Source: Xylographa opegraphella
Lineage: Eukaryota
Assembly (NCBI GenBank): GCA_022813865.1
Contig: JALDZX010000018.1
Span: 186,001-250,000, forward strand
Direction: 5' to 3'
DNA: 64,000 nt
In this document: one piece after another, positions 241 to 64,000 of the stretch
How positions within the stretch are numbered: position 1 is the first letter of the stretch
Layout: every line of letters begins with the position of its first letter
Notes under the pieces: generated by a model
Seen by the model: the letters and a program-made list of their open reading frames with translations, nothing else
The model's database searches: none
What the model was told of the DNA's origin: nothing
Made by a program: the position numbers and the translations under genes

Positions 241-1243
241 CTATTCTTCCGCTACTTCCTGTTTCATCTCTGATGTCTCGGTTGCAATGTTAAAGAGTGC
301 TTCGTTCTCTTGCTGTGCCTTGATGAACGCCTCTTTGAAGAGGTTTGCGTCTGTGGGCAAGTCAGCTATCCCGTTACATAATCTGGTTAGGTCATAGAGG
401 AACTCACTCTCACTGTTTGCAAATCGAATAGCAAGAGTACAAGGCTCCGGCTCGCGCTCGCTGACGTCTGCGGCTGCATTCCATACCCAGCTTCGGTCAC
501 TGCCCACGTTTGGCGAGAGCTTCATGTCGGGGACGACTATTCCCATGTTAGCACTGCTTGCTTTTAAGTTTTAGTCCGTCAACTTACCATAGTGATTCGC
601 GCAGACCTTTAATGTCTTATCCCGTCTCATGACCAGCCTCGTTTTCCCGTTGTCTCGATGCTTCAACAGCCTCACATCTCCAGTGCCACGCTCTTTCCAC
701 TCTCTCGATTCGCGGTCGAATTTGAAGAGCTTCGCTCGCATTTTGAAGGTCTGCTCCTCCTGCTCCTCGTTGGTCCTGGTCTCAACTTTCTCCGTCAGAT
801 GCACCACAGGCTCGAAGTGAGCATCAGGAGCATCTGCCTCTGGATCCTGTAAAAATTATTAGTCCCTAACGCCTATGTAGAGTTCTTAACAAGACTAGAG
901 CCTGAGTTACCTCATCGTCCTCCGCATCTTTTTTAGCCTTCGAGGATCCTGAGGGCTCGTTGGTATCCTCTTCTGCCTGTTCTTTCTTTTCTTTCTTTGC
1001 TCCACCGCCAAACATGGAAAACACATTATCCTTCATGTTAGCAGCAGTAGACGCTGCGGTCGCCGCAGCATTACTGGCCATCCCGGTGTACGTTGCGGGG
1101 TGGTTGGTTGCACTTTCAGAGTATTCGTCCCCCTTCGGGTTTGTTACGAGTTCGGTCTCTTGCTGGGCAAGCTTGGGCTCGCTGGAAGCAACTTGCTCAG
1201 CGGAGGGGTCTAACTTAGATTCTGTGTTGGAGGACATGGTCAT
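241..1243 (-). CDS. YRB1: Ran-specific GTPase-activating protein 1 (RanBP1/Yrb1), multi-exon
   Basis: Exons join (intron 910-847, GTAACT..ACAG) to give [71 protein letters not shown], the Ran-binding domain signature; N-terminal NVFSMFGGG motif. Confidence 0.95.
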
Positions 1244-1626: not shown

Positions 1627-4188
1627 TTACCTGTTGCCTCCTTTCATTGCTCTCGCGTGTCGACGCTTTTTACATTTCTCGTGACGAAGTTTTTTCTCTT
1701 GTTTCGCCGGCGGTCCACCACGTACTTTCCACCACATCCGCAGCGCCTTTTTCTGAGTTTCGCGGAGATGCTTTTCGCGGTAGTCTTGTACCTCATGGGC
1801 AAGCGCCATAACATTGAGACCCGTGGCTGCTTCAGCCAACATCTGAGCTTGTTGTGTGAACAGCGATGACATTCTTCGAGTGTAGTCATAGACATCTTTG
1901 CGTAGGTTTTTTTGTTGCTTTGCAAGTCGAGATGAGACCCTAACACCGTGCTGTTGGAGGTGTTGAGCCATAGTTCGGGAGAGCTCCTTCGATTGTGCAA
2001 GCATGATCTCTGTGGTTCGTGTAGTCTGGTTGAGAGATGCCAGCCCAATCTTCTCCACTTCTCTCAAGGCACCGTCAGCTTTTTTCACTGCGTCGCGAAC
2101 AAGTGCTTGAACTCCTATACTGGTTTGCCCATAGGCTAAATTGAGGCCGGACTGTGCAGATTGTAATTCACCTCTGACCTGTTCCGTAATCGCTTGAGCT
2201 GCTTTCTTCCAGCCAGCTATCTTGAGCCATGGGGTACCAAAGTCAACCTGGAAGGTTTCGTTGATTTTGGGTCTTTTGGCAGTCCATACGGAAATATTTA
2301 AGGCCCCATAGGCATCTTCCCTCGCGAGTTTGAGTGCATACACTCCGTCGAACAAAGTCGAGAACTCGTAGTTCAGAGGTTCCTTTCCTCGTCTGACATT
2401 GAAAAGGAGTGCAGGGGTTTTCTTGAATCGAGTGAACCACTTGGGTGGTGTTAAGACGACATGGCAGTCACCGACTACCTGTAATTTGAACTTGTCAGAC
2501 ATGTTTGGCGTCACTTTATGTGGTGCCAGGCTGGGCTCCAATAAGAAGGACGCCAAATCAGTATTTCTTAGAGTTGGACTGATGCTCTTTGGAGCACTAC
2601 GATCACTGGCAGCAGCAGAAATTGAAGGTTGAGCCGTTGTCATTTGGGAAGAAGTAGAAGAAGCTGCAATAGATATAGGTGTGAGACGAGAATCTAATAT
2701 TGGTGTAGGTTGATAATTCTTTAGTTCAACATTACCCAGTTCCAGCATTGATGTGGCGTTAAGTAAACGCGTACTAGTCATGGCGACACCGTAAAGGAAT
2801 AAAGCTGCGAGAAGACAAGTACCATAGAACGAAGTATATCTTGTTTCTTGTCGTAGGATTGTCCGAATACGTTTCGGCCAGATGCCTAGAACTGCATTAA
2901 TCGCTGAGTGATGGTGCGTAGGACGAGGGATTGTAGCCCCTTTCGTGGTTGCCGAGGCGATGCAAGCTAGATTTCTTCCCATCTGACTCGAGTCAATGTC
3001 AAGAAACGTCTGCAAATCCACCGGAAAGCGTTGTAGAACTTTCTGTATTTGATTTTGATGGTCACGAGCTTCGAGGCAGATATGTGGCGTTCTGAGATCC
3101 AGTCTCATAGGTCGAGCAGAGCTGTCCCAGTCTGTGTCCGAAGCCACCATGATCACAGGTACATCATGCCGGATCATGAAAGATCGCACCCCAATCCGTG
3201 TCTGCTCGGCTTCGATAGTCTCGCTCCTGGGTAGATAAAGAACGGCCAGATCTGGAAGTCTGTAATCTTTTGACACAGTAAACTTGTTGCTGGCAGGATC
3301 CCATGATGATCTCACAACCTTATGATCCTTAAGCTCGAGATGTATCTCGTCTTCTAGGATATCGTTCGGACAGTGTAAAGCAGAAGTGCATTCTTCAACG
3401 CTCATATCGAGGCCCATTGAGTCCAGGAGGAGTACTTCTGGAGATTCTCCGTCGCCAAATGAAATTGGAACAACAGTGAACTTCGAAAGTCCTTCATCGG
3501 ACCGCGTTGATGTCATGTCGAAGGAGGAAGCCAGTGCCGATCCGATCTTCTGGATGATGGGCTGCTTTACTGAGGTTGGACCAACAAACATGACCTTGTA
3601 AGGCTCAGTCACATGCAGTCCCTCATAGATCATCTTCTGTCGGACAGTAGCCACAAGGAATGTTGGTGGCTTCTGAAGCTCAAATTTTTGACAGACATTG
3701 TAGCAATCATTACCTTCGAATTTTTTCATAGGATGAGATACCTCAATTATTCCCCTGGTGTATATGCCGGCGGTTTGCGACTCCTGAAACTTGAAAGGCT
3801 GGCTTTGGAATGGCGGGGCGGGCAGAGGTCGGAGGCCCTTATTTGTGTCCTCCATTTCCTCTTCAAATTGTACCATGTGGTCAACAGATGAAGCACCACG
3901 AGATTCGCGAGACTCGGAATTGTTGTTAAGCTGAACCTCACCAAAGCTGACCTTCTCGTGGGTCGTTGCGAGGCCTTGGCTTTCATCGCCAGTATTATTT
4001 CCATCCACACTCTCCACTCTATCATGATCGTGATCGATATCATCGGTCGACGGTGTTTGCTGCCGTGACAGACCGTGATCTTCGTCATCAGAAGTTACTA
4101 TACTAATATCATCGATAATGTCCCAAGCACCATCCTCAATAGAGCTTGCGTTGTCGTCTACGGAACTATCGTCGGCTTGAGAGGCCAT
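1627..4188 (-). CDS. Uncharacterised single-pass membrane protein (853 aa from ATG 4188; ORF open to ATG 4311)
   Basis: Intronless 894-codon ORF; acidic N-terminus, globular middle region, one hydrophobic segment (FYGTCLLAALFLYGVAM), Ser/Thr-rich linker, helical C-terminus with basic tail. Confidence 0.85.
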   Translation of the reverse strand: MASQADDSSVDDNASSIEDGAWDIIDDISIVTSDDEDHGLSRQQTPSTDDIDHDHDRVESVDGNNTGDESQGLATTHEKVSFGEVQLNNNSESRESRGASSVDHMVQFEEEMEDTNKGLRPLPAPPFQSQPFKFQESQTAGIYTRGIIEVSHPMKKFEGNDCYNVCQKFELQKPPTFLVATVRQKMIYEGLHVTEPYKVMFVGPTSVKQPIIQKIGSALASSFDMTSTRSDEGLSKFTVVPISFGDGESPEVLLLDSMGLDMSVEECTSALHCPNDILEDEIHLELKDHKVVRSSWDPASNKFTVSKDYRLPDLAVLYLPRSETIEAEQTRIGVRSFMIRHDVPVIMVASDTDWDSSARPMRLDLRTPHICLEARDHQNQIQKVLQRFPVDLQTFLDIDSSQMGRNLACIASATTKGATIPRPTHHHSAINAVLGIWPKRIRTILRQETRYTSFYGTCLLAALFLYGVAMTSTRLLNATSMLELGNVELKNYQPTPILDSRLTPISIAASSTSSQMTTAQPSISAAASDRSAPKSISPTLRNTDLASFLLEPSLAPHKVTPNMSDKFKLQVVGDCHVVLTPPKWFTRFKKTPALLFNVRRGKEPLNYEFSTLFDGVYALKLAREDAYGALNISVWTAKRPKINETFQVDFGTPWLKIAGWKKAAQAITEQVRGELQSAQSGLNLAYGQTSIGVQALVRDAVKKADGALREVEKIGLASLNQTTRTTEIMLAQSKELSRTMAQHLQQHGVRVSSRLAKQQKNLRKDVYDYTRRMSSLFTQQAQMLAEAATGLNVMALAHEVQDYREKHLRETQKKALRMWWKVRGGPPAKQEKKLRHEKCKKRRHARAMKGGNR

Positions 4189-5137
4189 CGCGACGATTTG
4201 AGAGTTCGCAAGCCAGTCCGATAAGTTGTGCGTTGAAGGTATCGTTGGGAATAGCAAGGCTACAGCGGTCTTCTCTTCGTAACTATGGTATCCCAGACGG
4301 ACTGGCTGCATTGGAGCGAGTCAGCACCACAACTCATTTACAGAGGCATGCTTGGGCACAGAGAGAAAATGAGAGAAAGACAGTGATACAGGATGAAGAA
4401 TAACGCGGACGAGCAAGACAGGTTCAGAGTTCGAGAGAGTTCGACCCACCTGAGTCAACTGCCTCGTCTCGGCGAAGTGGGTTGCTGGTCGAAGCTACCC
4501 TATGACTACCATTCCTGATCACGGGACCAATAGTAGTCGCTGACAACAGACACTCATCCACAACACAGTACAATGAGATGCGAAGCCGCAAGGCAAGACG
4601 ATGCTCCAGGCTACAGCAGCTCCAAGGTGATGGTCACAGTGTTGGACGACTCGGGTGCTGTTGCAGAAGACGTGTTTGGAGCCTACACGGAGATACCCCT
4701 CCACTAGACCGCTTCCAGCTTACGATAAGCGCACTCCTTATCGTCACATGGGCTTTTGACTCTCAACGAACAAATGACATATCAAGAACAATACTATATA
4801 CAGAAATCTATCTACTAGTATAAACGACTACGTTTTGCTGGTGTAGATCGTTCTGAACGCAGATCGTGAAAGAGCAGAAGCGCTTCCAAGAGTGATCATA
4901 GGAGTGCTGCCCACTCGTTAACGCCGGGAGACTGAAGTTCGTGTTTCGGCCAGGCTCCTGTGTGTTGGGAAACACTCTTGTGTATAGCTTCGATAAGCGT
5001 TGAGCGGATCCGATCCATTATTTTAAATCATATATTCCGAATAACGCCGTTGCCAACGCATGCTCAGGACAGCACTTCCACTTCCATGTCCGAAAATCCC
5101 TAGTCGTGCCAGAAATGCTCAACAATCAAAATACCAG

Positions 5138-6946
5138 TCAAGGCGATGCCCAGCCACCTAGGCGAATGTAAGTTCGAATCTCAACCAGAAACTCAAGGGA
5201 CTGACCTGCAACTTCAACCCACTCGGCAAGACAGCTGCCCTGTTTTCCTTCAACGTCAGGAATGTCCGTATCGCACTTGCATCTGCACCCAACGCCATTT
5301 TCTTTGACTGAATCCCAGGTTTCCCAGTAGTCGTCCTCTTCTTTCCGTTTTTTTTCGTCCAATGTTGTCTTTTCGAGAAACCGCTCTCTGGGTAATTGTC
5401 GTGCTGGAGCATTGGCGGGACAATGCTGTATCGTTGTGTGTCGATACCCAAAATCTCGGAAGTAATGAATGTCTTTGGGGCCTAGTAGAGCTCCTGCTGC
5501 TAAAGAGTGGATAGGAGCATCGCCCCACTGGAGATTTGTTAGCCTGGAAAAGCTTTAGAGCGAGAAAGTTACACGAACCCGCTCCATCCAGAACCCTCCA
5601 CTCCGATCCATAGTGTCAAAGAAATCTTCGTACTCCTTGCTGCGGAAAAAATCCAGCCTTGCGATCTCAAAATTACTCCAGAAATGGCACATGTTGTATG
5701 TCTCGCCATCCATTGCTTCAGGATCTATGTCTTCTAATCGTCCATGGCCTGGCTCTGTTGTTAAGATCTCCTCCGGCAACGGCTCTTGGTATTTTGGATC
5801 GTCCCTGGGAAGGGTCTCTTCCTCTTTTGCGGGCGGCTCAACAAACATCTCCCATAATCCTTTGGATTCTAGGTTATGTTTACGTTTATAGGCAGAAGCA
5901 TATCGGAATATGTTTGGTACGGTTTCTTTCAACTCTTTGACGGCAATGGTGAAGCCGTAGGTCTTGTTGGCGCGTGCCATATGTTGGAAAGGATCGCTAA
6001 ATCAGTTGGTCAACAAATAAAGGAACGGAGCTTGCCGATGTCATACTAGGTAATATCACAGAAGTATTTGATCTCCGGTTCCAGCCGCCAGTACCATTCA
6101 TACTTCTTAAGAAGATCGTGTTTGTAGAAAAATCTTGTACACCATTAGTCACAGTTCGTCATAGACAACGCAGTCACTTACCCAGAGTAAAATCTGCACA
6201 TGTGATGATAGCTCTCCATGCCACCATACATGATAGCAGCGTCACCTTGCTTCCGGATACCCTCACGAGCGACATCTGCGTTTACCCAGTCCGGATAACC
6301 CCACATTGATGGATCTATCTTGCCAAATTCTACTGGCGCGCTTGTGTAGTTCGTGATAGTCTCCTTGAATTCGGTACCAAAATCTCCATCGTTTAGAAAG
6401 ACATAGGGGTAGTGAAACCACCTATTGAAATGTCTCTCTATAGATTTCACGGATTGTATGACCCCTTCCAATTCTTTGTCTCTTGCTAGTACTACAAACG
6501 CTGCGTTTGCACGGGGACCGTTGGTCTGCGGCTCCAAACAGCCAGTAACGAAAACTTTGTCATGCTTCTCGCTGATCCGTCTATATAGTCAATGATATCA
6601 GCATTGATTGTAGAAGAAGTGAAATAGTGACTCAGATCTAGGATTTTCTGTACCTTATTGAAGGTGGCGCGCCAGCTGGTAATAATATGCCTCCTGGACT
6701 TGAAGGATGGCGGACGACAAGCACCAGTATTAGGATTATAACAATACACGGGAACAGCAGGACAGCGCCCAGGGGTATCGATATCTTGGAATTGCCCCTC
6801 AACCGTATCCTCCTGCGGAAGAAAGCTAATCTAGGAGAAATTCGCTCCCTCTGACGAGAAATATCTCCCAGAGTAGGAAGTTTTTCAAGGGAAGGGAGGT
6901 TCGGAGAGGAAGGTATCCGCTTCGCGATGTTCTGTACGATGCCCAT
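5138..6946 (-). CDS. Glycosyltransferase family 15 (KRE2/KTR alpha-1,2-mannosyltransferase, Ktr5/Ktr7-like), multi-exon
   Basis: N-terminal TM (IPLGAVLLFPCIVIILILVLV); motifs RANAAFVVLAR, FNRWFHYPYVFLND, SYHHMCRFYSG, YNMCHFWSNFEIA, GGFWMER; final micro-exon GWASP*. Confidence 0.93.
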
Positions 6947-7673
6947 GGATGCCGGAAGGGAACGACGACCGCGTCACCGCGTCGTCGTAATATTGAAAGT
7001 TGACTACTTCAAACAGCTGCCTCGAGCTGAGACTATCGGTGTTAATGGAGCTGAAGATTTGTTGGTGACAGCTGTTCTGCCACAAAGAATAGAAATGCAG
7101 GTGTGAGAGGGAGTTCTAACGAGCGGCTGGGAGTCGTCCCCTTCGTAGAATGTACGAGTATTACTGCGCTATGTCACAGCTTCAATCCACAACAGGTGCC
7201 AGACATATGGCCCCCATCGGCAGTCTGAGATCTGGATTCGTATGGCGAATGCTACTTTTTGCAGCGGATAATAGGAGTGGTTGACCGACAGATCCCAGTT
7301 CGACTAAGCTATATATAGGTTAGTTAGCTTCTCTGAGTGCCCTCATCACCAAAACACCCTTGTCACACAAGAACACTGCGATCTCCGTGCATTATTTCTG
7401 TTGCCTGATGTTCGTACACATTCGTTGTTTACAGACATGAGAGGCGGCAATTAATCTCGTCTTCCGAGCACAGAAATGCCATTACGTATCACGAAACCTT
7501 TCTGACGAAGGGTCTTTCTACCAAAAGAAGCTTCGTTAAATCTGCCTTGAATACATTTCCCGTCTCCCCAATAAACATTTCTAACAATTATATTTACCAA
7601 TGAGTAGTCATACTGAAATTTCTATCTTATGATGCATCTTGACGATTTACAATCAGTTTGACTGGCAAGGGGA

Positions 7674-47496: not shown

Positions 47497-50244
<2,748 letters not shown>

Positions 50245-51753: not shown

Positions 51754-52736
51754 TCAGACTGTGGCTCTCCAAGCATCCCGTAATCCCAGCACACCGGCAA
51801 CCAGACCCAGTACTGCCAGCTGTGCTTCTCCGACCAGGCCGCTCTCAGATCCGTAATGCACGGTTACTGGAAACCAGGCAGCATTAACGTAGACCTGCTT
51901 CCACCATTCCCTATCTTCCTCTTCCCTCCTTGCCAAAATTTGACCATGATTGGTCTCCTCGCCCTGCTGTACCGAGCCCAGATCTTTACTCGAGCTTACT
52001 TCTTGGTTTATACTCCATTGTCTTGCTAGTCGGCCAAACTCCAGTACTACATGCGCCATCCAGAACCGCGAACTCCACACATACCAACTATTGACTTTTT
52101 CGTTTCCAAACGCGAAGACTCCTTTGCTCCCAAGGTACGCTCCGTTCTCCAGGTATTGGAAAATCGCACATGCACCAACCTGGCCCCACACAATGCTCCG
52201 CAACACCCTATCCTGAGGTGGCGATCGGTATATTGATGCTCCCCATGTATAGATCGAGAGCAAGCCGCCTAGACGGAGGAATATCCGCACATCATCAATA
52301 AGGGCTGCAAGTGCGGCAGTGGAAGTTGTGAGCCGAAAGAGGCGAGAGGTCGGAGACGGGATCAGGGTAGCAAAGAAAGTCGAGAAGGGAGGCAAAGCGT
52401 AGGGTAACTGGGAAAGAAGGTTATCGAGGGATTTCGCGGCTTTAGAGAGTCGGAGGGCGGTGATGCGGTTGAGAAGCGCATGGAGCAGATGAAGGGTATA
52501 GGTTATGGTTAGGAGGGTGGTGTCAAGCGAGGATGTCGTCGAAATGAGCCTGGCGAAATCATTTAGAGCTCGATTTCTGTAGAGCTGCACCAGGCCATGA
52601 TAGCTTCATTCTCAGATCAAGGGAGATCGCACCTATTGATACGAGAGATGTGGGAATCAGTTCGCGCGACATAGTGGGGAAGCACTTGCGCCAGTCTCCG
52701 CAGCGAACTTGAATGAGCATTAGGTGAGGAACTCAT
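51754..52736 (-). CDS. pex11C: Peroxin 11C-like (Pex11 family), 2 exons
   Basis: Inferred exon 1 MSSSPNAH..TDSHISRIN spliced to RLISTTSSLDTTL; DVRIFLRLGGLL, FQYLENGAYL, WSSRFWMAHVVLEF, NAAWFPVTVH. Confidence 0.82.
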
Positions 52737-56482: not shown

Positions 56483-59400
56483 TCAAGCATAAGCAGCCCA
56501 TCCACAGAATAGCAATGCAAGATTTCTTTCATCCGTCGCTTGCTGTATGAGCTCGTTCACCGTAGCAGTGACGCTCAAAGACTTAGATAATTTCTTTGCC
56601 ACGACTGTGAGCGCCCGATCTGCTTCCCCTGGCTCGCTTTCCTGGATAATGTTCTCGGCCGCTTCATTGTCTCCGATCTGTGCCTGATTCTCCTGCAGTT
56701 TCTTCAATCGCAAGGGTGATAGAGACCAGCTGTAGAGGGGATCGTATCTCAGTACATCCAGGATGGTCATGATACTATATGATTCGTCTCGGAGCGCCTC
56801 CATGGTAAATTCGCAGCAGCGACGGAAGCCACCTTCAGTCCCAGTAATGCCCATTCCATCAACGAGATCTCGTGTCAATCTGAACGGTACGACTTCAGGC
56901 ACAGTCAAGACACGGCCCTGCTCGAAAGCGATACCCAGATCGATGTGTACCACCTCGCCGGTCTGTTCGTCAAGGAGTATGTTGTGACCGTGTCGGTCCC
57001 CGAGGCCCAAAATGTAACCCAAAATGGATATTGCAGCGGTACTCCGGGTGTATGCCAGTCGCGTCTCGAACCAATCGTCGGGGTTCTCGAAATGTTCCAT
57101 GAAGAAATATCGCATGACAGGGTGGAATTTGTCACACACTGCTCGAAAGGTCTTCAAGCGAAGGTCAACAGATTTATTCTGGACATCAAGTATGTGCTTG
57201 CGACAAATATTTGGCTTTAGGTCGCTGGGGAAGTATCTCTGGTGTGCAGGCATTAGGTAGTCATGAAGAGGTACGGTATCAGAAACAAATTCCATAAGAC
57301 CGGATGTGGATGTCAACGGCACTACCTTGTATGTCCTAATAGCGAGGTTCCTCTGACGGGCATTACGATGTGATTTGAGTAAATTGCTCACTTGGTCGAA
57401 GACTTGCTCCATTATGGAGTCTTGTCTCAGATCATCATTTCCACCTTTGAACTACCCGGATTAGCGGAGGCAGAATATCGAGTCCGATACGCCTTACCAG
57501 TTGCTTGTACTTTCGGCCATCAGTGCCAATCGCTGTCAATATCTTAGGCATACTTATACCCGATGCAATTGTGAATTCGGACTGAAACTTGGCGATTGTT
57601 GGAACACCCTCGTAATCACAGTCATGCCGTAGTGATATCTTCATGGTTGGTGGTGGAACCCTAAGGTTCGGGACATCTTGCTCAAGTTTCAGTCCTGTTG
57701 GCGATTTACGCAGCAAAACCTTGGTCCCAGGTTTGTGTCTCCCTTCGTCGACCTTCTCAGTCGCAAAGCGGACAAAGTTGATATTCGAATTATGAACTCC
57801 AAGCCAGGTTGGCGCAGCACGCCTATTAGCTTTGAGCTGATTCACTATCTTGACAGCGGCTGCGTTCCTGGCAAGAGCAGCTTGATCTTTGCCGCCTTTG
57901 GTCTTGCTACTGGCAAAGACTTGATACATCCCATGATAGGGATGCTCAAGGCAGATGCGGAATACCATGGCCGAGAGGAGAACTTGGAAGCTCGTTCGTG
58001 CATCTAGAAGACGTGACGTCCATTGATTCATCAGAGGGGCGAACTTCCTACTGCCGACATGATTGATGTATTTCGAAACCGCGTTGTTTGCAATCTCATT
58101 TTCGTAATGCTCCAACCATAGAGCAGAAAATCGTAAGGCATCAGAATCATAACTATCACATGCCCTCAGACTCAGTAGATAGTTCTCAAGGCTTTGCGAT
58201 AAGAAAGCCTCTCGACTGTCTTTTAGTCGCTGATATTCTCGGTCGTCAAGTCCGAACCACTGCTGAGCTTTCTTGAGGTGACTCTTGAGATTGTCGTGAT
58301 CTTTCCCCTGGGAAATTGCCGTCTTGATCATCCTTTCAAGGTCCTGTACTTCGGCTTCTTTACGTTCTCGGAGTCTCTGTATACGTTGGAAATCCTCAAG
58401 GTTATCGTTGTTCTGTAGTTGCTTATCACAGAATGAAGCGAACTCGTGAAAAACTTGGCCGGCCTCTTGACCTTTGTCCATGTCATTAAGTTCTTTGATA
58501 GCAGGTAAAAGGTAGTTTGCAATAATTTCGTCCGGTTTCTCCAGTCGCGCTTCCGAAATACGATGACCCTATGTCGATGTCAGTGTATAGGAGGCGTGAT
58601 AGTAATAAGGAATACAAAAATTACAAGCTTTGCAAGGAGTGCCGGCTTGCCAACATAGATATTCTGGGATTGTAAGTCCGAATGATACACGATCTCCTGG
58701 AGCATCCTGATCGAGGCTGACATTTCTTGTTGATCCCACAACACATTGGTACCTTCTAAACTAATGGCCGCGTCGACAGCAACACCCTGCTCTAAGCATG
58801 CCGGAACGATCTGGCTCATGTAAGTGGCCGTACTGAGCGCGCTTTGTAATGCCCCATGATGTCGACTTAGAGCTGTTGACGCAAGAAGTGAGCGACATTC
58901 GACTTGTCGTGCATCACGTTGAGAAATTTTTGCTAGGTGTCGTAACTGATCACTCTTACTAAACATGCTAAAGAGCGTTTGCCGACATGACAGAATTGTT
59001 GCCGTGTTGTCTAATCTGTGGAAATTAGCTTCTCTCCGCATACAATACCATGTGAACATACCTCTCAGTAAGCATCCATCGGTTGCGAGTCTCAAACTTG
59101 GCCCACACCTCCTGTAACTGGTCAACACCTTGTGAGAAGACCACGTCTTCTACCTCCGTAAGGATAGCAAGACAGCTTAATGTTTCATGGATGGTGGAAA
59201 CTCCTAATTTTGTGAACATCATTGATCTTAGGGTCGACCGAAATCCTGAACTGATGGCTGTAGTAATTTCACTGTATTCTGATGCATTATGGATGTCTTG
59301 GAATGCTTTGAAAATAATACTCCCCGTGCTTGCTGGTGTTGCTGGGGCTGGGATGTCCCACCGTTCCAATTTTCTGGCGGTACGTAGCATTGCTTCGGCA

Positions 59401-62400
59401 TTAAAGGTACCCGAACGCGTTGAAGTGGATATCATTGATTGTGATAGACTATTGAGGTCCAGTGTGTCTAATATGGTAGTTATGCCATGTTCTGTTTCCT
59501 CTTTTGCTACACGGCTCCGTCGAACCTGGCTATCATAGTCTGCACTCCGAAAAGATAAGCTTTTGAATCCAGAGTTCTCGAACTCAAGCTGTTCCATCAT
59601 TGCGGATAGATTTGACGGTTGACGAATCCCATAGAACGAGTCTTTGTCGTCCAGGTTACGGAAAATCTGGAGTAAGAGAGTGTTTGGCAATGCGGGCTTA
59701 ATGTTAGAGGCTCTCCGAGACTTGCTGTTTTTTATGATTTCAGAGAAGCCTATCTCGAGAAGTAATAGTGCTGTCTTGTACATATGACATTTTACAGCCG
59801 CAGCAGCAGCATGCTCATAGTTGAGATCGAGCCACTGAGAACGATCGGCTTGCGTGTTTTCCCGAGGTAAAGCTTGGGTACGTAGGTAGAGTATAACGTG
59901 TAAGATCAGGTTCAGGTGAGGGATTATTGCGTTGGTGGAATTGCTAAATAATTGACTCAGGGCAAAAGATAGTACCTGTTTCACTTTTTGCTGCTTGTCA
60001 GCTTCACGAAGCAGTACAAGATGTATAATATAAGGACAGAGCCGTTCTGGTAGATCTTTAACAGCCAAGAGCACAGGCTTGAGCTCAGAGAGAAGCTTAT
60101 CTTTTGGATCGAGCGATACCAAGCTAACACACAAGATCCGAATCCATTCTTGAAAGTCGTAGTTATTTTCGAAGACGAGGGCTTCTTGCAGAGATTTAGG
60201 CACGTTCAAATCTCCGCCGATAGTTCTGGGACAAGAAAAGGAACCCCAGAAGGTGGCCGTAATCAATGAGCTCGGAAGTGATTGCTCACAGTCTGTCAAG
60301 AGATCGGTGCCTTGGGCCTTACTTACAATCATCTGTAGCGCTCTTTCGGCCAGCCCAATATCTTGTTGCTTGTCGGTCAGCAATATTCTGGAGAGATGCT
60401 GTAAAATCATGCGTCGCGAATTCGATTCCAATACTTGCTGTGATGCAAATTCTAGAACCGACAAATTGTCAACCTGAACTTCACGTAATATCGTTTTAGG
60501 AATCGTTCCTGTTCCTCCATAGGCGCGGCCTAGGACCCTACCAACCCAGGAAAGATAGTCTGACTCTATTTTACGATGCTGACACGAGCTCCAGAGAGAG
60601 TCTACGAATGATGCCGCTTGCTTGTCGGCTCCTAGAATATCGTCCCGGAATCCGGTAGGAACATCAAAGTTGGTACATAGTAAATCGAGAATACCGTTAA
60701 GTGACGATTCAGCTACTAAAATCGGGTCGGCCTGCCGATCCTTCAATAATTCCAGCAGCAACGCGCTTTCAGGAGTGCCTATGCGTGCGTTACCTGTAGC
60801 ACGAATTTGACGGGCCGAGTGAACAATGGCCTTGAATGATGTTTCCGCAGCATCTCGTAGATCGGGCGACGCGAAGTCTTCGGCAAACTGGCCAAGCCAA
60901 GCATGAAAATCCTGAGCTCTGGACATCGTGGCGAGAAAATGGCTCTCTTGTGTTGTACTTTCTTGTGGGCTATGCAGAAACTTCCTTGAGGCGGAAAGCA
61001 TAGACACTATTAGTCCAGTCAGGAATGATGGTACTGTCTTGAGGTAGTCGATACCGTGAACAATGAGGTACCGGGTTATCCCAACAGAGTCTTCTGCACA
61101 GTGTGTATCAACAAGAAAAGGGCGTAACGCATGCAGCGCCATCTCCAGCGCATAGTCCCTCAGTGCTGTTTTGCCAGCCATACAAATGAGTATACGAATC
61201 TTACGTATGATTGAGCAGGTATGCAAAGAACCTAGTGCCTCGTGAACGGAGTCCAATAGATACCGAAAAATAAATATGTACAATGCGGGCGGCCAGGCGT
61301 CTTCTATATCATAGGCTGAGCGTGAGAATAGATAAGAAATTTGATCCGTCAGGTATCCAGCTTTAAAAGAGGGCTGCCGACCAGCCGGTAAGGCGGCCGT
61401 TGAAGCTCCGTAAGAAATCATTTCATCATATACAATATGTGCGGCACTGTACATCTTATCGCTCTGGAACCCTTTCACGATATGGTCCTCGCGATCCATG
61501 GTTCCAAAGAATGTAGCCATGATTTCAGGGAAGTGCTTTGTCACTAAAGCGCCATAACGATCTTTACCAAGTAATCTGCGTAGACGGATATCAGCGCCAG
61601 CAGCTTTGGCGTCTCGGTTTGGCGGTATTGCGGCATCTCGAGAAATACAGTAAGCTGCGCATTTGCCGAAAGATAATTCCAAGAGACGCTCGTATGAAGT
61701 GGAAAGAGCGGCGGCTAGTTGTAGAGCTTCGTCATCCCTACCACGCATTACGACCTGTCCAGTCACCTCAGCCTGGATGTCGGTCAACAGATCAGTAAGA
61801 CTGCCGTACCCGAAAATGTTGTGCGGTATTGCGTTCAAGGCTTGTGATTCAAGCCACGTGAAGATAATCTGGGAAGCGAACAACCTGAAGAGTTCCTGTG
61901 AACTGTAAAGATGTAAGGCTTTCGCCATGCGTGCCAAGCAGAACTTTGCATGCAATATGGATCGACTGACTTGACCAGCAGTCTCGAAAATTGCGTATAT
62001 ACAGCGCCGCAATAACGTCGACCAAGATGATCCTAGGTGAGCTAGAACGAACAGCCTTAGAGCTATGCCTTCGATCCAATCCCTTACAGTTGGAAGGCTG
62101 TTGATTATATCTTCTAATATTGCATCATGCTCTTTCAGAATGAAATGACCAAAGATGCCAGAAATATTTCTTCCAACGAAGAACTTGACTGAGACAGTAC
62201 CCTCCTCAAGAATTTGAAATAAGCTTGTTCTTGCGGACGGTAGATCAAGACTCCTAGCATAATCTGGACGGATCTTAACAACACTCTGAAGCAAAAGGGA
62301 AAGACATTGATGAACATGCGGTGAACAAATGCCGCGACTGAAGACCTTGATAAACCATTCATAAAGATTGGAGCCAAGATCCGTAATGGAAGTGTCGCCA

Positions 62401-64000
62401 TTGTCTAACCAAACAATTGCGGAAGAGGCCATCAAGTCTAGACATAACCCTTGAGCGACTTCACATCTTTCGTACTCGTAAGGCTCTAGTATGGTGTTGC
62501 CGAGATACTCCAGCAACAATAGTACTGCAGAGTTATCCATACCGATACCGCTGTTGAGAAATTTCCTCAGGTAAACTCTACAAGCAAGGAACTCGTGAGG
62601 AGGTAGAGAAATCAGGTACTCAATGTGTCTGAGGTCGACTGATCTAGCTCCATCGCCACTTTTGTCGATAGCCCGGTCTATCGACTCCTGACAAATCCTA
62701 GCAATAAGCGATGCACGCTTTGCTTGTACGCCGGTACTGGAACAAACCCAATCATGCTCTATATCGTGTATCAAATAATCCGTTTTGCTTGTACCGCAAT
62801 TCTGTGAGTCAAAATCTTGATCAATTTCCATAAGATCTTGTTTATCATTTTCACGTCTTCCGAGATTAGAAAGTTCCTGCCAAAAGTCACGATCGAATGG
62901 CAAGGCGGTCGCTAAGGCGCCTTTGTGTAGCATAGAATTATCAACTTTAAAGAAAGTACTGCTACTAAGCAGTATCCCGAGAGCGTTCAGGAGACCATCG
63001 ACGACGGTCATGGGGTCCTGCTGACAAAGTATGAGACGAACCAATCGTGTTCTCAGCTGAGTTGCCATGAGCGTAAGCGATCGCGACTTGACGGAGCCAC
63101 TGACGGGACCGGCCGAAGAAATACCAAATGCAACTATACACAGCGAGCTCATGATGCTCGTAACATCAGCACTTAGTGCTTGCGAATCAGAATCCTCGGA
63201 TATTGGGTCTTGCTTAAGCACATTAGTAACCTCGATAATAAGGAGTTCGATAGCGGTGTCATAGATGTTCTTAAATCTTTTATCCACGGTCTGAGCAGCT
63301 GTACGTTGGCATGATTCTGACTTCGAAGATGGAAATCCCAAGTCAGCCGTCTCATTCATGTGGAGATACTTTGCCAGATTCTCCTCGTGCTTACTTCGCA
63401 GAATTGCCTGTGCAATTGTGCCCAAACCTAGAAGACTCTGATCGCTATCATCAGTGAACGGCAGGCGTAAGACAGCGGATATGAGCTTCATTATAGTTGA
63501 AGCTTCGCTATGACGTGACAAATGGGCAATCTGATGCCGATCGTGAATTTGTGCTATCGTCAAGTCAATCAAATACATGCAAATGAGGTAATCGAAGGCG
63601 AGAGTGACCTACAAGGTCTCCATCGAATAAAGAGCCAACGAAGAATACGCTCAGATGTCATTTGCATTGCAGCGGGGTTTTGCTTTAACATGATGTTAAT
63701 GACAGTTTTCCATAGATCAACAGCGGAATCACAAAACGCCGAAGGGCCGTTCAGCTCTACGGAGCTGAGCATTTTGTCCGCGACTTCTACGATATCTGCG
63801 TAAACAACAAGCCCTTTATCAAGAATAATGGCCATCAGATGACAGGCTGCTCTGCATGTCGAGTTTGAGGAAACATTCCGTGCGGCTACCTGCCAAGCAT
63901 CCAACCAGAATCTGCAGAGCAATGTTGTTGTAGCATATGCTTGAGTCGCAGCACTAAAAGATTAGGTCAGCCATCCATGCGACCGTGGTAATGTAATCAG
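56483..64000 (-). CDS. TEL1: Tel1/ATM PIKK kinase, 3' portion (5' end lies beyond the window), multi-exon
   Basis: FAT region; spliced [51 protein letters not shown] end [13 protein letters not shown]. Confidence 0.96.

Follow-up and report, generated by a model that had tools for sequence, protein, structure and literature searches.

Results

A single-exon gene for an unannotated protein family of Pezizomycotina

The 64,000-nucleotide stretch of contig of the lichen-forming fungus Xylographa opegraphella, contig JALDZX010000018.1 analyzed here (positions 186,001 to 250,000; the window, in whose coordinates all positions are given) carries on its minus strand a single uninterrupted open reading frame (ORF; 1627..4311, stop codon 1627-1629) that forms one exon, and whose product we consider as a candidate selective-autophagy receptor. 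The ORF list gives 894 residues from ATG 4311 and 853 residues from ATG 4188, and the latter translation, P0001 (1630-4188, minus strand, N-terminus MASQADDSSVDDNASSIEDGAWDIIDDISIVTSDDED), provides the residue numbering used throughout. The initial annotation read the frame correctly; its start at 4188 is probably not the true one, as the ORF runs upstream to ATG 4311. The 41 codons in between (4189..4311, minus strand) read ..ALLFPTIPSTHNLSDWLANSQIVA and specify a probable N-terminal extension with a conserved L-x-[FY]-P-T-[IL]-P ... W-L-x-x-S-Q motif. Because this extension resembles those found in the gene models of 89 of 146 relatives (counted where at least 25 residues precede the conserved Met), sequence comparison places the true start probably at ATG 4311, for a protein of 894 residues. 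The element [FY]P[TVIL][ILV] is carried by 53 of the 89 extended gene models, and the motif is seen in several classes. As 130 of 136 sequences also retain the Met at 4188, two start sites or isoforms are possible.

The nearest relatives are Xylographa hypothetical proteins of 852-853 residues, with 79-85% identity over 100% of the query, followed by proteins of other Lecanoromycetes, and an exhaustive phmmer search returns 398 cluster representatives at E ≤ 1e-3, 209 of these at E ≤ 1e-30. Species-named members are found in Candelaria, Stictis, Helicocarpus, Dactylellina (Orbiliomycetes), Phylliscum (Lichinomycetes) and Aplosporella (Dothideomycetes), in many Helotiales (e.g., Sclerotinia, Monilinia, Glarea and Cadophora), and in Penicillium and Polytolypa. 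Among the matches listed, every named member belongs to the Pezizomycotina and none is a Sordariomycete, which does not in itself show that the family is absent from Sordariomycetes or other groups. The source names are all "hypothetical" or "uncharacterized" bar one, Rutstroemia P0268, a "glycosyltransferase family 15 protein" in which we find no Pfam domain at all; this label is probably a naming slip.

A Pfam scan of P0001 at E ≤ 1 returns 0 families, and the same scan of 49 diverse relatives places no family above the cut-off. A PDB sequence search with P0001 alone gives nothing meaningful, PDB sequence and profile searches return no autophagy protein, a homologue search with a 90-sequence profile adds no new members, and an ESM Atlas search recovers only unnamed ascomycete clusters. 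A full-text literature search, with subscription journals mostly outside its reach, finds no description of the family or its motifs, and a search with the motif peptide strings gives just 3 matches, all unrelated.

An invariant AIM-type core in a predicted disordered N-terminal tail

The N-terminal tail contains a core of the type called AIM (Atg8-interacting motif) or LIR (LC3-interacting region), W-D-I-I (residues 22-25; 4114..4125, minus strand; TGG GAC ATT ATC), which lies in a stretch with a predicted local distance difference test score (pLDDT) below 50 and follows an acidic, Ser-rich tract, DDSSVDDNASSIEDGA (residues 6-21; 4126..4173, minus strand). Occurrence of [WFY]xx[LIV] alone is at chance level in P0001 (10 motifs seen versus 10.9 expected from composition) and has no meaning by itself, and just 2 of the 10 fall in predicted disordered regions. 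We find that these two behave very differently in the alignment of 146 relatives from several classes, 139 of which cover the core: [W/Y/F]-x-x-[I/L/V/M] at W22-I25 is kept in 139 of 139, and the other, at F82, in 7 of 117. The aromatic position is Tyr in 81, Trp in 56 and Phe in 2, and the +3 position is Ile in 59, Leu in 58, Val in 20 and Met in 3, with no other residue types at either position. The W-x-x-I in acidic and Ser-rich context that had been noted at 4125-4114 is thus present in the DNA and borne out by the alignment, and its conservation in relatives is strong.

Four residues upstream of the core are near-invariant (S15 in 113, S16 in 112, D/E19 in 133 and S20 in 126 of 146); of these, S20 and D/E19 occupy positions -2 and -3 relative to the core aromatic. 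Three clade-specific versions can be told apart, SSLGDS[AT]-[WY][DE][FI][IVL]-DD.S..[ST]DDED, SSLGDSA-YEIL-GDS..LTSDDED and SSLSES-WATL-S.SD..SEDD, all of which retain the two motif-defining positions, the aromatic and the +3 aliphatic residue. The first ~122 residues are predicted to be disordered (pLDDT below 50 for residues 20-122), and the model does not dock the core onto a folded domain. Beyond it, a poorly conserved disordered linker (residues 38-125; 3814..4077, minus strand; pLDDT below 50) leads to the first folded domain, with a mean top-residue frequency of only 0.17-0.36 across residues 51-130. As judged from sequence and model, the core would correspond to an accessible AIM of the form [W/F/Y]-x-x-[L/I/V] with acidic surroundings, and interchange of Trp, Tyr and Phe at its first position is what such a motif tolerates; the Tyr-based YxxPhi sorting signal is not known to tolerate the same interchange. 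Readings of the motifs as a kinesin-light-chain W-acidic motif, FFAT or a calcineurin PxIxIT site seem to fit the respective consensus patterns poorly and were dropped.

An acidic, phosphorylatable cluster follows the core

Directly downstream lies S-I-V-T-S-D-D-E-D (residues 29-37; 4078..4104, minus strand), a phosphorylatable acidic cluster that in P0001 resembles an Atg11-binding region. Across the 146 sequences, position 29 is Ser in 75 and Asp in 35, position 32 is Thr or Ser in 104, and D34 and D35 are kept in 119 and 103, respectively; the 20 residues following the core hold medians of 6 D/E and 6 S/T. The yeast Atg11-binding consensus is given as D/SILSSS in the excerpted text of its source (PMC4195827), and SIVTSD of P0001 fits it. 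Only 44 of 139 relatives show a strict Atg11-type pattern, [DEST]-hydrophobic-hydrophobic-[ST], in the 14 residues that follow the core, and 55 of 139 show a looser version. Across the family, an earlier description of this segment as a hydrophobic-S-acidic motif of CK2 type therefore stands for the S/T-D-D-E cluster and not for the hydrophobic pair. The conserved element is the acidic, S/T-rich cluster, and a dedicated Atg11 motif is not established. According to the portion of the CCPG1 literature available, the rule for a FIP200-interacting region (FIR) calls for an acidic or phosphorylated residue followed by aromatic-x-x-L/I/V, with neighboring acidic or phosphorylated residues helping (PMC7946963); the core and flanking residues of the family match this FIR/LIR rule as stated there. 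Under this rule, by analogy, the AIM itself could serve both Atg8 and Atg11.

A single membrane segment with predicted N-in topology

A transmembrane (TM) helix spans residues ~455-478 (2755..2826, minus strand), with the N-terminus predicted to be cytosolic. The most hydrophobic 19-mer of P0001 begins at residue 458 and the model places a helix at 447-478, in agreement with the single TM previously assigned to ~2830-2775. A single strong hydrophobic 19-mer (Kyte-Doolittle hydropathy, KD, of at least 1.6) is found in 142 of 146 relatives, with a median TM hydrophobicity of KD 2.21. The N-side flank is richer in K+R (2.77 versus 1.25 on the C-side; richer in 110 sequences, poorer in 11), and the protein is predicted to have one TM, a cytosolic N-terminus and a lumenal C-terminus, the topology of Atg39.

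P0001 carries the N-glycosylation sequons NAT477, NIS631, NET643 and NQT720, all of which had been listed before, and a fifth that had been missed, NMS562, which is the best conserved: N562-x-S is kept in 109 of 145 relatives, and N631-[V/I]-[S/T] in 91 of 146, with S/T interchange (S in 61, T in 53). Conserved sequons on the C-terminal side argue for the lumen of the secretory pathway, and the topology of ER or nuclear-envelope type put forward in the initial annotation, N-in with lumenal sequons, is supported by these predictions. The protein would be a single-pass membrane protein of the secretory pathway with its N-terminus in the cytosol, most likely of the endoplasmic reticulum (ER) or outer nuclear membrane.

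A predicted cytosolic alpha/beta domain and lumenal region

A full-length AlphaFold2 model built from 90 sequences (mean pLDDT 69.5) contains two confidently predicted folded domains, one on each side of the membrane. The cytosolic alpha/beta domain (residues 130-415, ~290 residues; 2944..3801, minus strand) has a pLDDT of 89.8 and a predicted template modeling score (pTM) of 0.86 in its own domain model, and is predicted to adopt a three-layer fold with beta-hairpin insertions. It includes the stretch LPDLAVLYLP...VRSFMIRHDVPVIMVA, ending VPVIMVA (residues 311-349; 3142-3258), which had been singled out at ~3260-3140 as reminiscent of a receiver domain and is indeed there. Fold matches of the domain are all weak and comprise receiver and GTPase/septin types, the latter including the pseudo-GTPase-like CENP-M and septins; its likeness to receivers is at background Z only, and GTPase-like folds match equally. 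The Atg32 pseudo-receiver structure was absent from the fold-match lists, which does not exclude a similarity to it. Response_reg has no Pfam match in P0001 or the 49 relatives, and no phospho-acceptor Asp is conserved, the equated position being Tyr here and variable in the family consensus LPDLAIxxxS. The P-loop GTPase signatures G1 GxxxxGK[ST], G3 DxxG and G4 NKxD are likewise not found, with G1 and G4 not conserved in the family. From sequence and model, the domain is best described as a putative pseudo-enzyme scaffold. At the linker edge just before it, a short conserved motif, I/F-x-F-x-E-P (PFKFQES here; residues 131-137; 3778-3798, minus strand), contains a nearly invariant E136.

On the lumenal side, a poorly conserved, Ser/Thr/Pro-rich disordered linker (residues 479-540; 2569..2754, minus strand; pLDDT below 50 for 484-538) precedes an immunoglobulin (Ig)-like beta-sandwich (residues 541-656, with the confident part of the full-length model at ~560-655; 2221..2568, minus strand) predicted with pLDDT above 90, which holds the sequons N562-x-S (2497-2505) and N631-x-S/T (2290-2298) and whose structure matches are all weak and Ig-like (filamin, titin, ZP-N and S-layer). 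It is followed by ~165 residues of long amphipathic helices (657-823; 1720..2220, minus strand), modeled as helices 657-688, 693-787 and 793-823 and consistent with the long helices proposed earlier beyond the TM. A helix of ~165 residues would measure ~25 nm. The helical region ends in a conserved Q-K-x-A-L-x-x-W-W and gives way to a basic C-terminal tail (residues 824-853; 1630..1719, minus strand) that is unstructured in the model; the net charge over the final 30 residues has a median of +8 and reaches +5 or more in 116 of 146 relatives.

The family-averaged hydrophobic periodicity of the C-terminal helices is 3.68 residues, with hydrophobic moments up to 0.48, which is the 11/3 value of apolipoprotein-type amphipathic helices and not the 3.5 of heptad coiled coils; such an 11-residue periodicity is odd for the lumenal side of a fungal membrane protein. 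The family profile of the helices (residues 676-820; ~1729-2162) matches apolipoproteins A-IV, A-I and E (E 1.9e-6 to 1e-3), and 3 of 49 relatives give a sub-threshold match to Pfam Apolipoprotein. These matches represent a likeness of composition and periodicity and not homology, because designed helical bundles match the profile equally well (E 2.7e-6).

Neighboring genes

Next to the gene, at 5558-6973 (minus strand), lies a glycosyltransferase family 15 (GT15, KTR-type) alpha-1,2-mannosyltransferase gene split by introns; the GT15 name of Rutstroemia P0268 may have been given by mistake, or it may hint at the two genes adjoining in Leotiomycetes too. On the other side is a RanBP1-domain gene (Yrb1-like; 244-807, minus strand) with a short intron between ~546 and 574, and the acidic, Ser-rich ORF at 869-1273 is probably its N-terminal exon. 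Farther away are Cdc48/p97 (47762-50241, plus strand; CDC48_N and two AAA domains in three ORF pieces), a PEX11-family gene (51757-52605, minus strand) and a very large phosphatidylinositol 3-kinase (PI3K)-related kinase (56486-63608, minus strand; PI3_PI4_kinase and FATC at the C-terminus, ORFs of 1527 residues and more). The window also holds genes for Prp19, Chs7, a glycosyltransferase family 90 (GT90) protein, ribosomal L27A, a protein kinase and a CofD-like protein; no autophagy genes, including Atg8, were recognized among the genes of the 64-kb window.

Discussion

A tentative receptor of the ER or nuclear envelope

The predicted features suggest, by sequence, model and analogy, that the gene product may be an ER or nuclear-envelope receptor for selective autophagy with a layout like that of Atg39 or CCPG1, a reading that we put forward as tentative and to which we give somewhat less than an even chance. 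We favor it because the order of the features matches that of Atg39 and CCPG1. The family appears to represent an unannotated variant of this receptor-type layout, outside any known receptor family. As described in the excerpted report on Atg39, its cytosolic residues 1-144 hold an AIM and an Atg11-binding region and are followed by a TM and then, on the perinuclear side, by amphipathic helices that attach to the inner nuclear membrane (PMC8789198); an N-terminal tail with AIM and phospho-acidic cluster, one N-in TM and lumenal amphipathic helices are predicted in the same order here. In that account, Atg39 is a protein of 398 residues without a folded cytosolic or lumenal Ig-like domain, and its two motifs are tens of residues apart, whereas they are adjacent in the present protein (PMC8789198). 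At 853-894 residues, with a 290-residue alpha/beta domain and a beta-sandwich, the present protein resembles Atg39 by its predicted layout.

CCPG1 crosses the membrane once, in type II orientation, and its lumenal part is helical. In the text excerpted from its description, a canonical LIR (CGWTVI) is directly followed by an acidic, Ser-containing FIP200-binding motif, and the second motif of this kind, FIR2, is SDDSDIVTLE (PMC7946963). A-WDII-DDISIVTSDDED of the present protein matches this placing of a LIR beside a FIR, and S-I-V-T-S-D-D-E-D resembles the FIR2 peptide. The residue after I-V-T is Ser in the present protein and Leu in the FIR core as given there, the hydrophobic pair is unconserved in the present family, no homology to CCPG1 is detectable by the Pfam scan of P0001, and the alpha/beta and Ig-like domains are extra.

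Under the receptor reading, the [W/Y]-x-x-[I/L/V] core of the disordered tail would insert into the two hydrophobic pockets of lipidated Atg8, and kinases of the CK2 or Hrr25 type would phosphorylate the flanks of the core, the Ser/acidic tract on one side and the S/T-D-D-E cluster on the other. Phosphorylation would make binding stronger and, as with LIR/FIR motifs, may allow the Atg11 claw to be engaged by the same stretch. The alpha/beta domain, which has neither receiver nor GTPase ligand motifs, could be a regulatory or scaffolding module, and the Ig-like domain, the ~25-nm helical region and the basic tail might attach to the facing membrane at its lumenal leaflet, in the manner of the Atg39 helices; alternatively, the lumenal region may cluster the protein or lumenal cargo.

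Several points weigh against this assignment. We find no homology to any known receptor by Pfam in P0001 and the 49 relatives, and the large, highly conserved cytosolic domain of ~290 residues and the Ig-like domain suggest a primary function beyond cargo tagging. In the motif itself, 109 sequences have a residue just in front of the aromatic, which is phosphorylatable in only 52 of them (Thr in 35, Ser in 17) and Ala in 40, and the hydrophobic Atg11-type pair is missing from most relatives, so that the receptor proposed in the initial annotation is partly supported, by the conservation of the motif and not by that of the pair. The sequons could be conserved for structural reasons and carry no glycan, and the apolipoprotein matches, equaled as they are by designed bundles, may reflect composition only. 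The receptor role is still hypothetical and is drawn from sequence and structural models.

Alternative explanations

A protein of this architecture could be a membrane scaffold or tether unrelated to autophagy, with the alpha/beta domain, then a pseudo-GTPase or pseudo-receiver, and the Ig-like and helical regions doing the main work in membrane contact, organelle shaping or lumenal lipid handling, and with the N-terminal motif recruiting another partner. The alpha/beta domain and beta-sandwich are indeed the most conserved and most confidently folded parts, Pfam detects no known receptor domain, the fold matches extend to CENP-M and septins, and the N-terminal extension bears a second conserved short motif, [FY]PTIP...WL..SQ. 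We nevertheless consider this explanation unlikely, as it leaves unexplained why the AIM-defining positions, the aromatic and the +3 aliphatic residue, are the invariant ones, in a Ser-rich and acidic context. Another alternative is a type II protein cycling between Golgi, endosome and vacuole, in which the aromatic motif and the CK2-type acidic cluster would direct sorting or retrieval, as a YxxPhi signal read by adaptor complexes, an FxFxD-type retrieval signal or an acidic-cluster signal. Aromatic retrieval signals of FxFxD type are known from yeast Ste13, many relatives read Y-D-F-I-D, which fits F/Y-x-F/Y-x-D, and a type II protein whose cytosolic N-terminus is long and whose lumenal sequons are conserved would suit any secretory compartment. 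However, 56 of 139 relatives have Trp as the aromatic residue, which the YxxPhi pocket is not known to accept; only 45 of 139 have an aromatic residue at the third position and only 65 an Asp at the fifth, and whole clades read W-A-T-L-S or Y-E-I-L-G. A sorting signal strikes us as unlikely, slightly more so than a scaffold.

The receptor mechanism might also operate elsewhere, on mitochondria, as an Atg32 analogue, or on peroxisomes, with the helices and basic tail in the intermembrane space binding acidic inner-membrane lipids. The published map of Atg32 comprises an AIM at 86-89, Ser114 and Ser119, a pseudo-receiver at 200-341 and then a TM (PMC8122514), and the AIM, CK2-type phospho-acidic region, alpha/beta domain without phospho-acceptor, TM and C-terminal extracytosolic domain of the present protein are colinear with it. 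A 2021 perspective states, in its excerpted text, that no Atg32 homologue is detected in filamentous euascomycetes (PMC8226480), and a basic amphipathic C-terminus would suit cardiolipin-rich membranes. No sequence homology to Atg32 is detected, however, by Pfam in P0001 and 49 relatives or by the PDB searches, and the C-terminal domain has two conserved N-x-S/T sequons, one with S/T interchange, which point to the secretory pathway and against the outer mitochondrial membrane. The TM hydrophobicity is fairly high (median KD 2.21), and a 375-residue folded domain would need to cross the outer membrane; we regard a mitochondrial or peroxisomal location as very unlikely. Kück and Stein chose SMAC_04227 of Sordaria macrospora by its motifs as a candidate mitophagy receptor, and in the excerpted 2021 account it is an uncharacterized, euascomycete-restricted protein with W-x-x-I (SPSWEQI), acidic clusters, a SILS-type Atg11 motif and a TM (PMC8226480). 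That account states that it was selected for a C-terminal TM and lists phosphosites up to S732 (PMC8226480). Compared by this published description, it is unlikely to be a member of the family and is probably a different protein, because its phosphosites up to S732 would be lumenal here.

Implications for organelle autophagy in filamentous ascomycetes

The ER or nuclear-envelope receptor reading can be carried further, to a version that we consider decidedly speculative and doubtful: the family might be the missing Atg11/Atg8-dependent receptor for nuclear-envelope and ER autophagy in filamentous ascomycetes, which would match Atg39 in function and may be related to it, if very remotely, by descent. 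It would sit in the outer nuclear membrane and reach across the lumen with an apolipoprotein-like amphipathic rod of ~25 nm. The Trp-Trp and basic tail would then hold the inner nuclear membrane, such that both membranes are pulled into the autophagosome, and the pseudo-enzyme alpha/beta domain would gate the phospho-regulated AIM.

According to the literature cited here, as far as its excerpted text goes, the budding-yeast receptors Atg32, Atg36, Atg39 and Atg40 have no recognized counterparts in filamentous ascomycetes. The 2021 perspective selects 27 Sordaria candidates by motif and favors SMAC_04227 (PMC8226480), a 2022 review, in the part available, gives Atg32, Atg43 and Atg24 as the only fungal mitophagy receptors (PMC9980689), a 2024 study, in its excerpted text, infers a nucleophagy receptor of Aspergillus oryzae from a partial atg11 phenotype without identifying it (PMC11335778), and, in the excerpted words of a 2026 review, the factors of nucleophagy are "largely unknown" beyond yeast (PMC13208281). 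Even if the receptor idea fails, the family is a widespread "dark" protein that has no Pfam family, although two of its domains are predicted with confidence and several short motifs in it are conserved. It offers a concrete candidate gene with a single invariant motif in tractable genera such as Penicillium and makes a testable candidate for the organelle-autophagy receptor still missing in filamentous ascomycetes.

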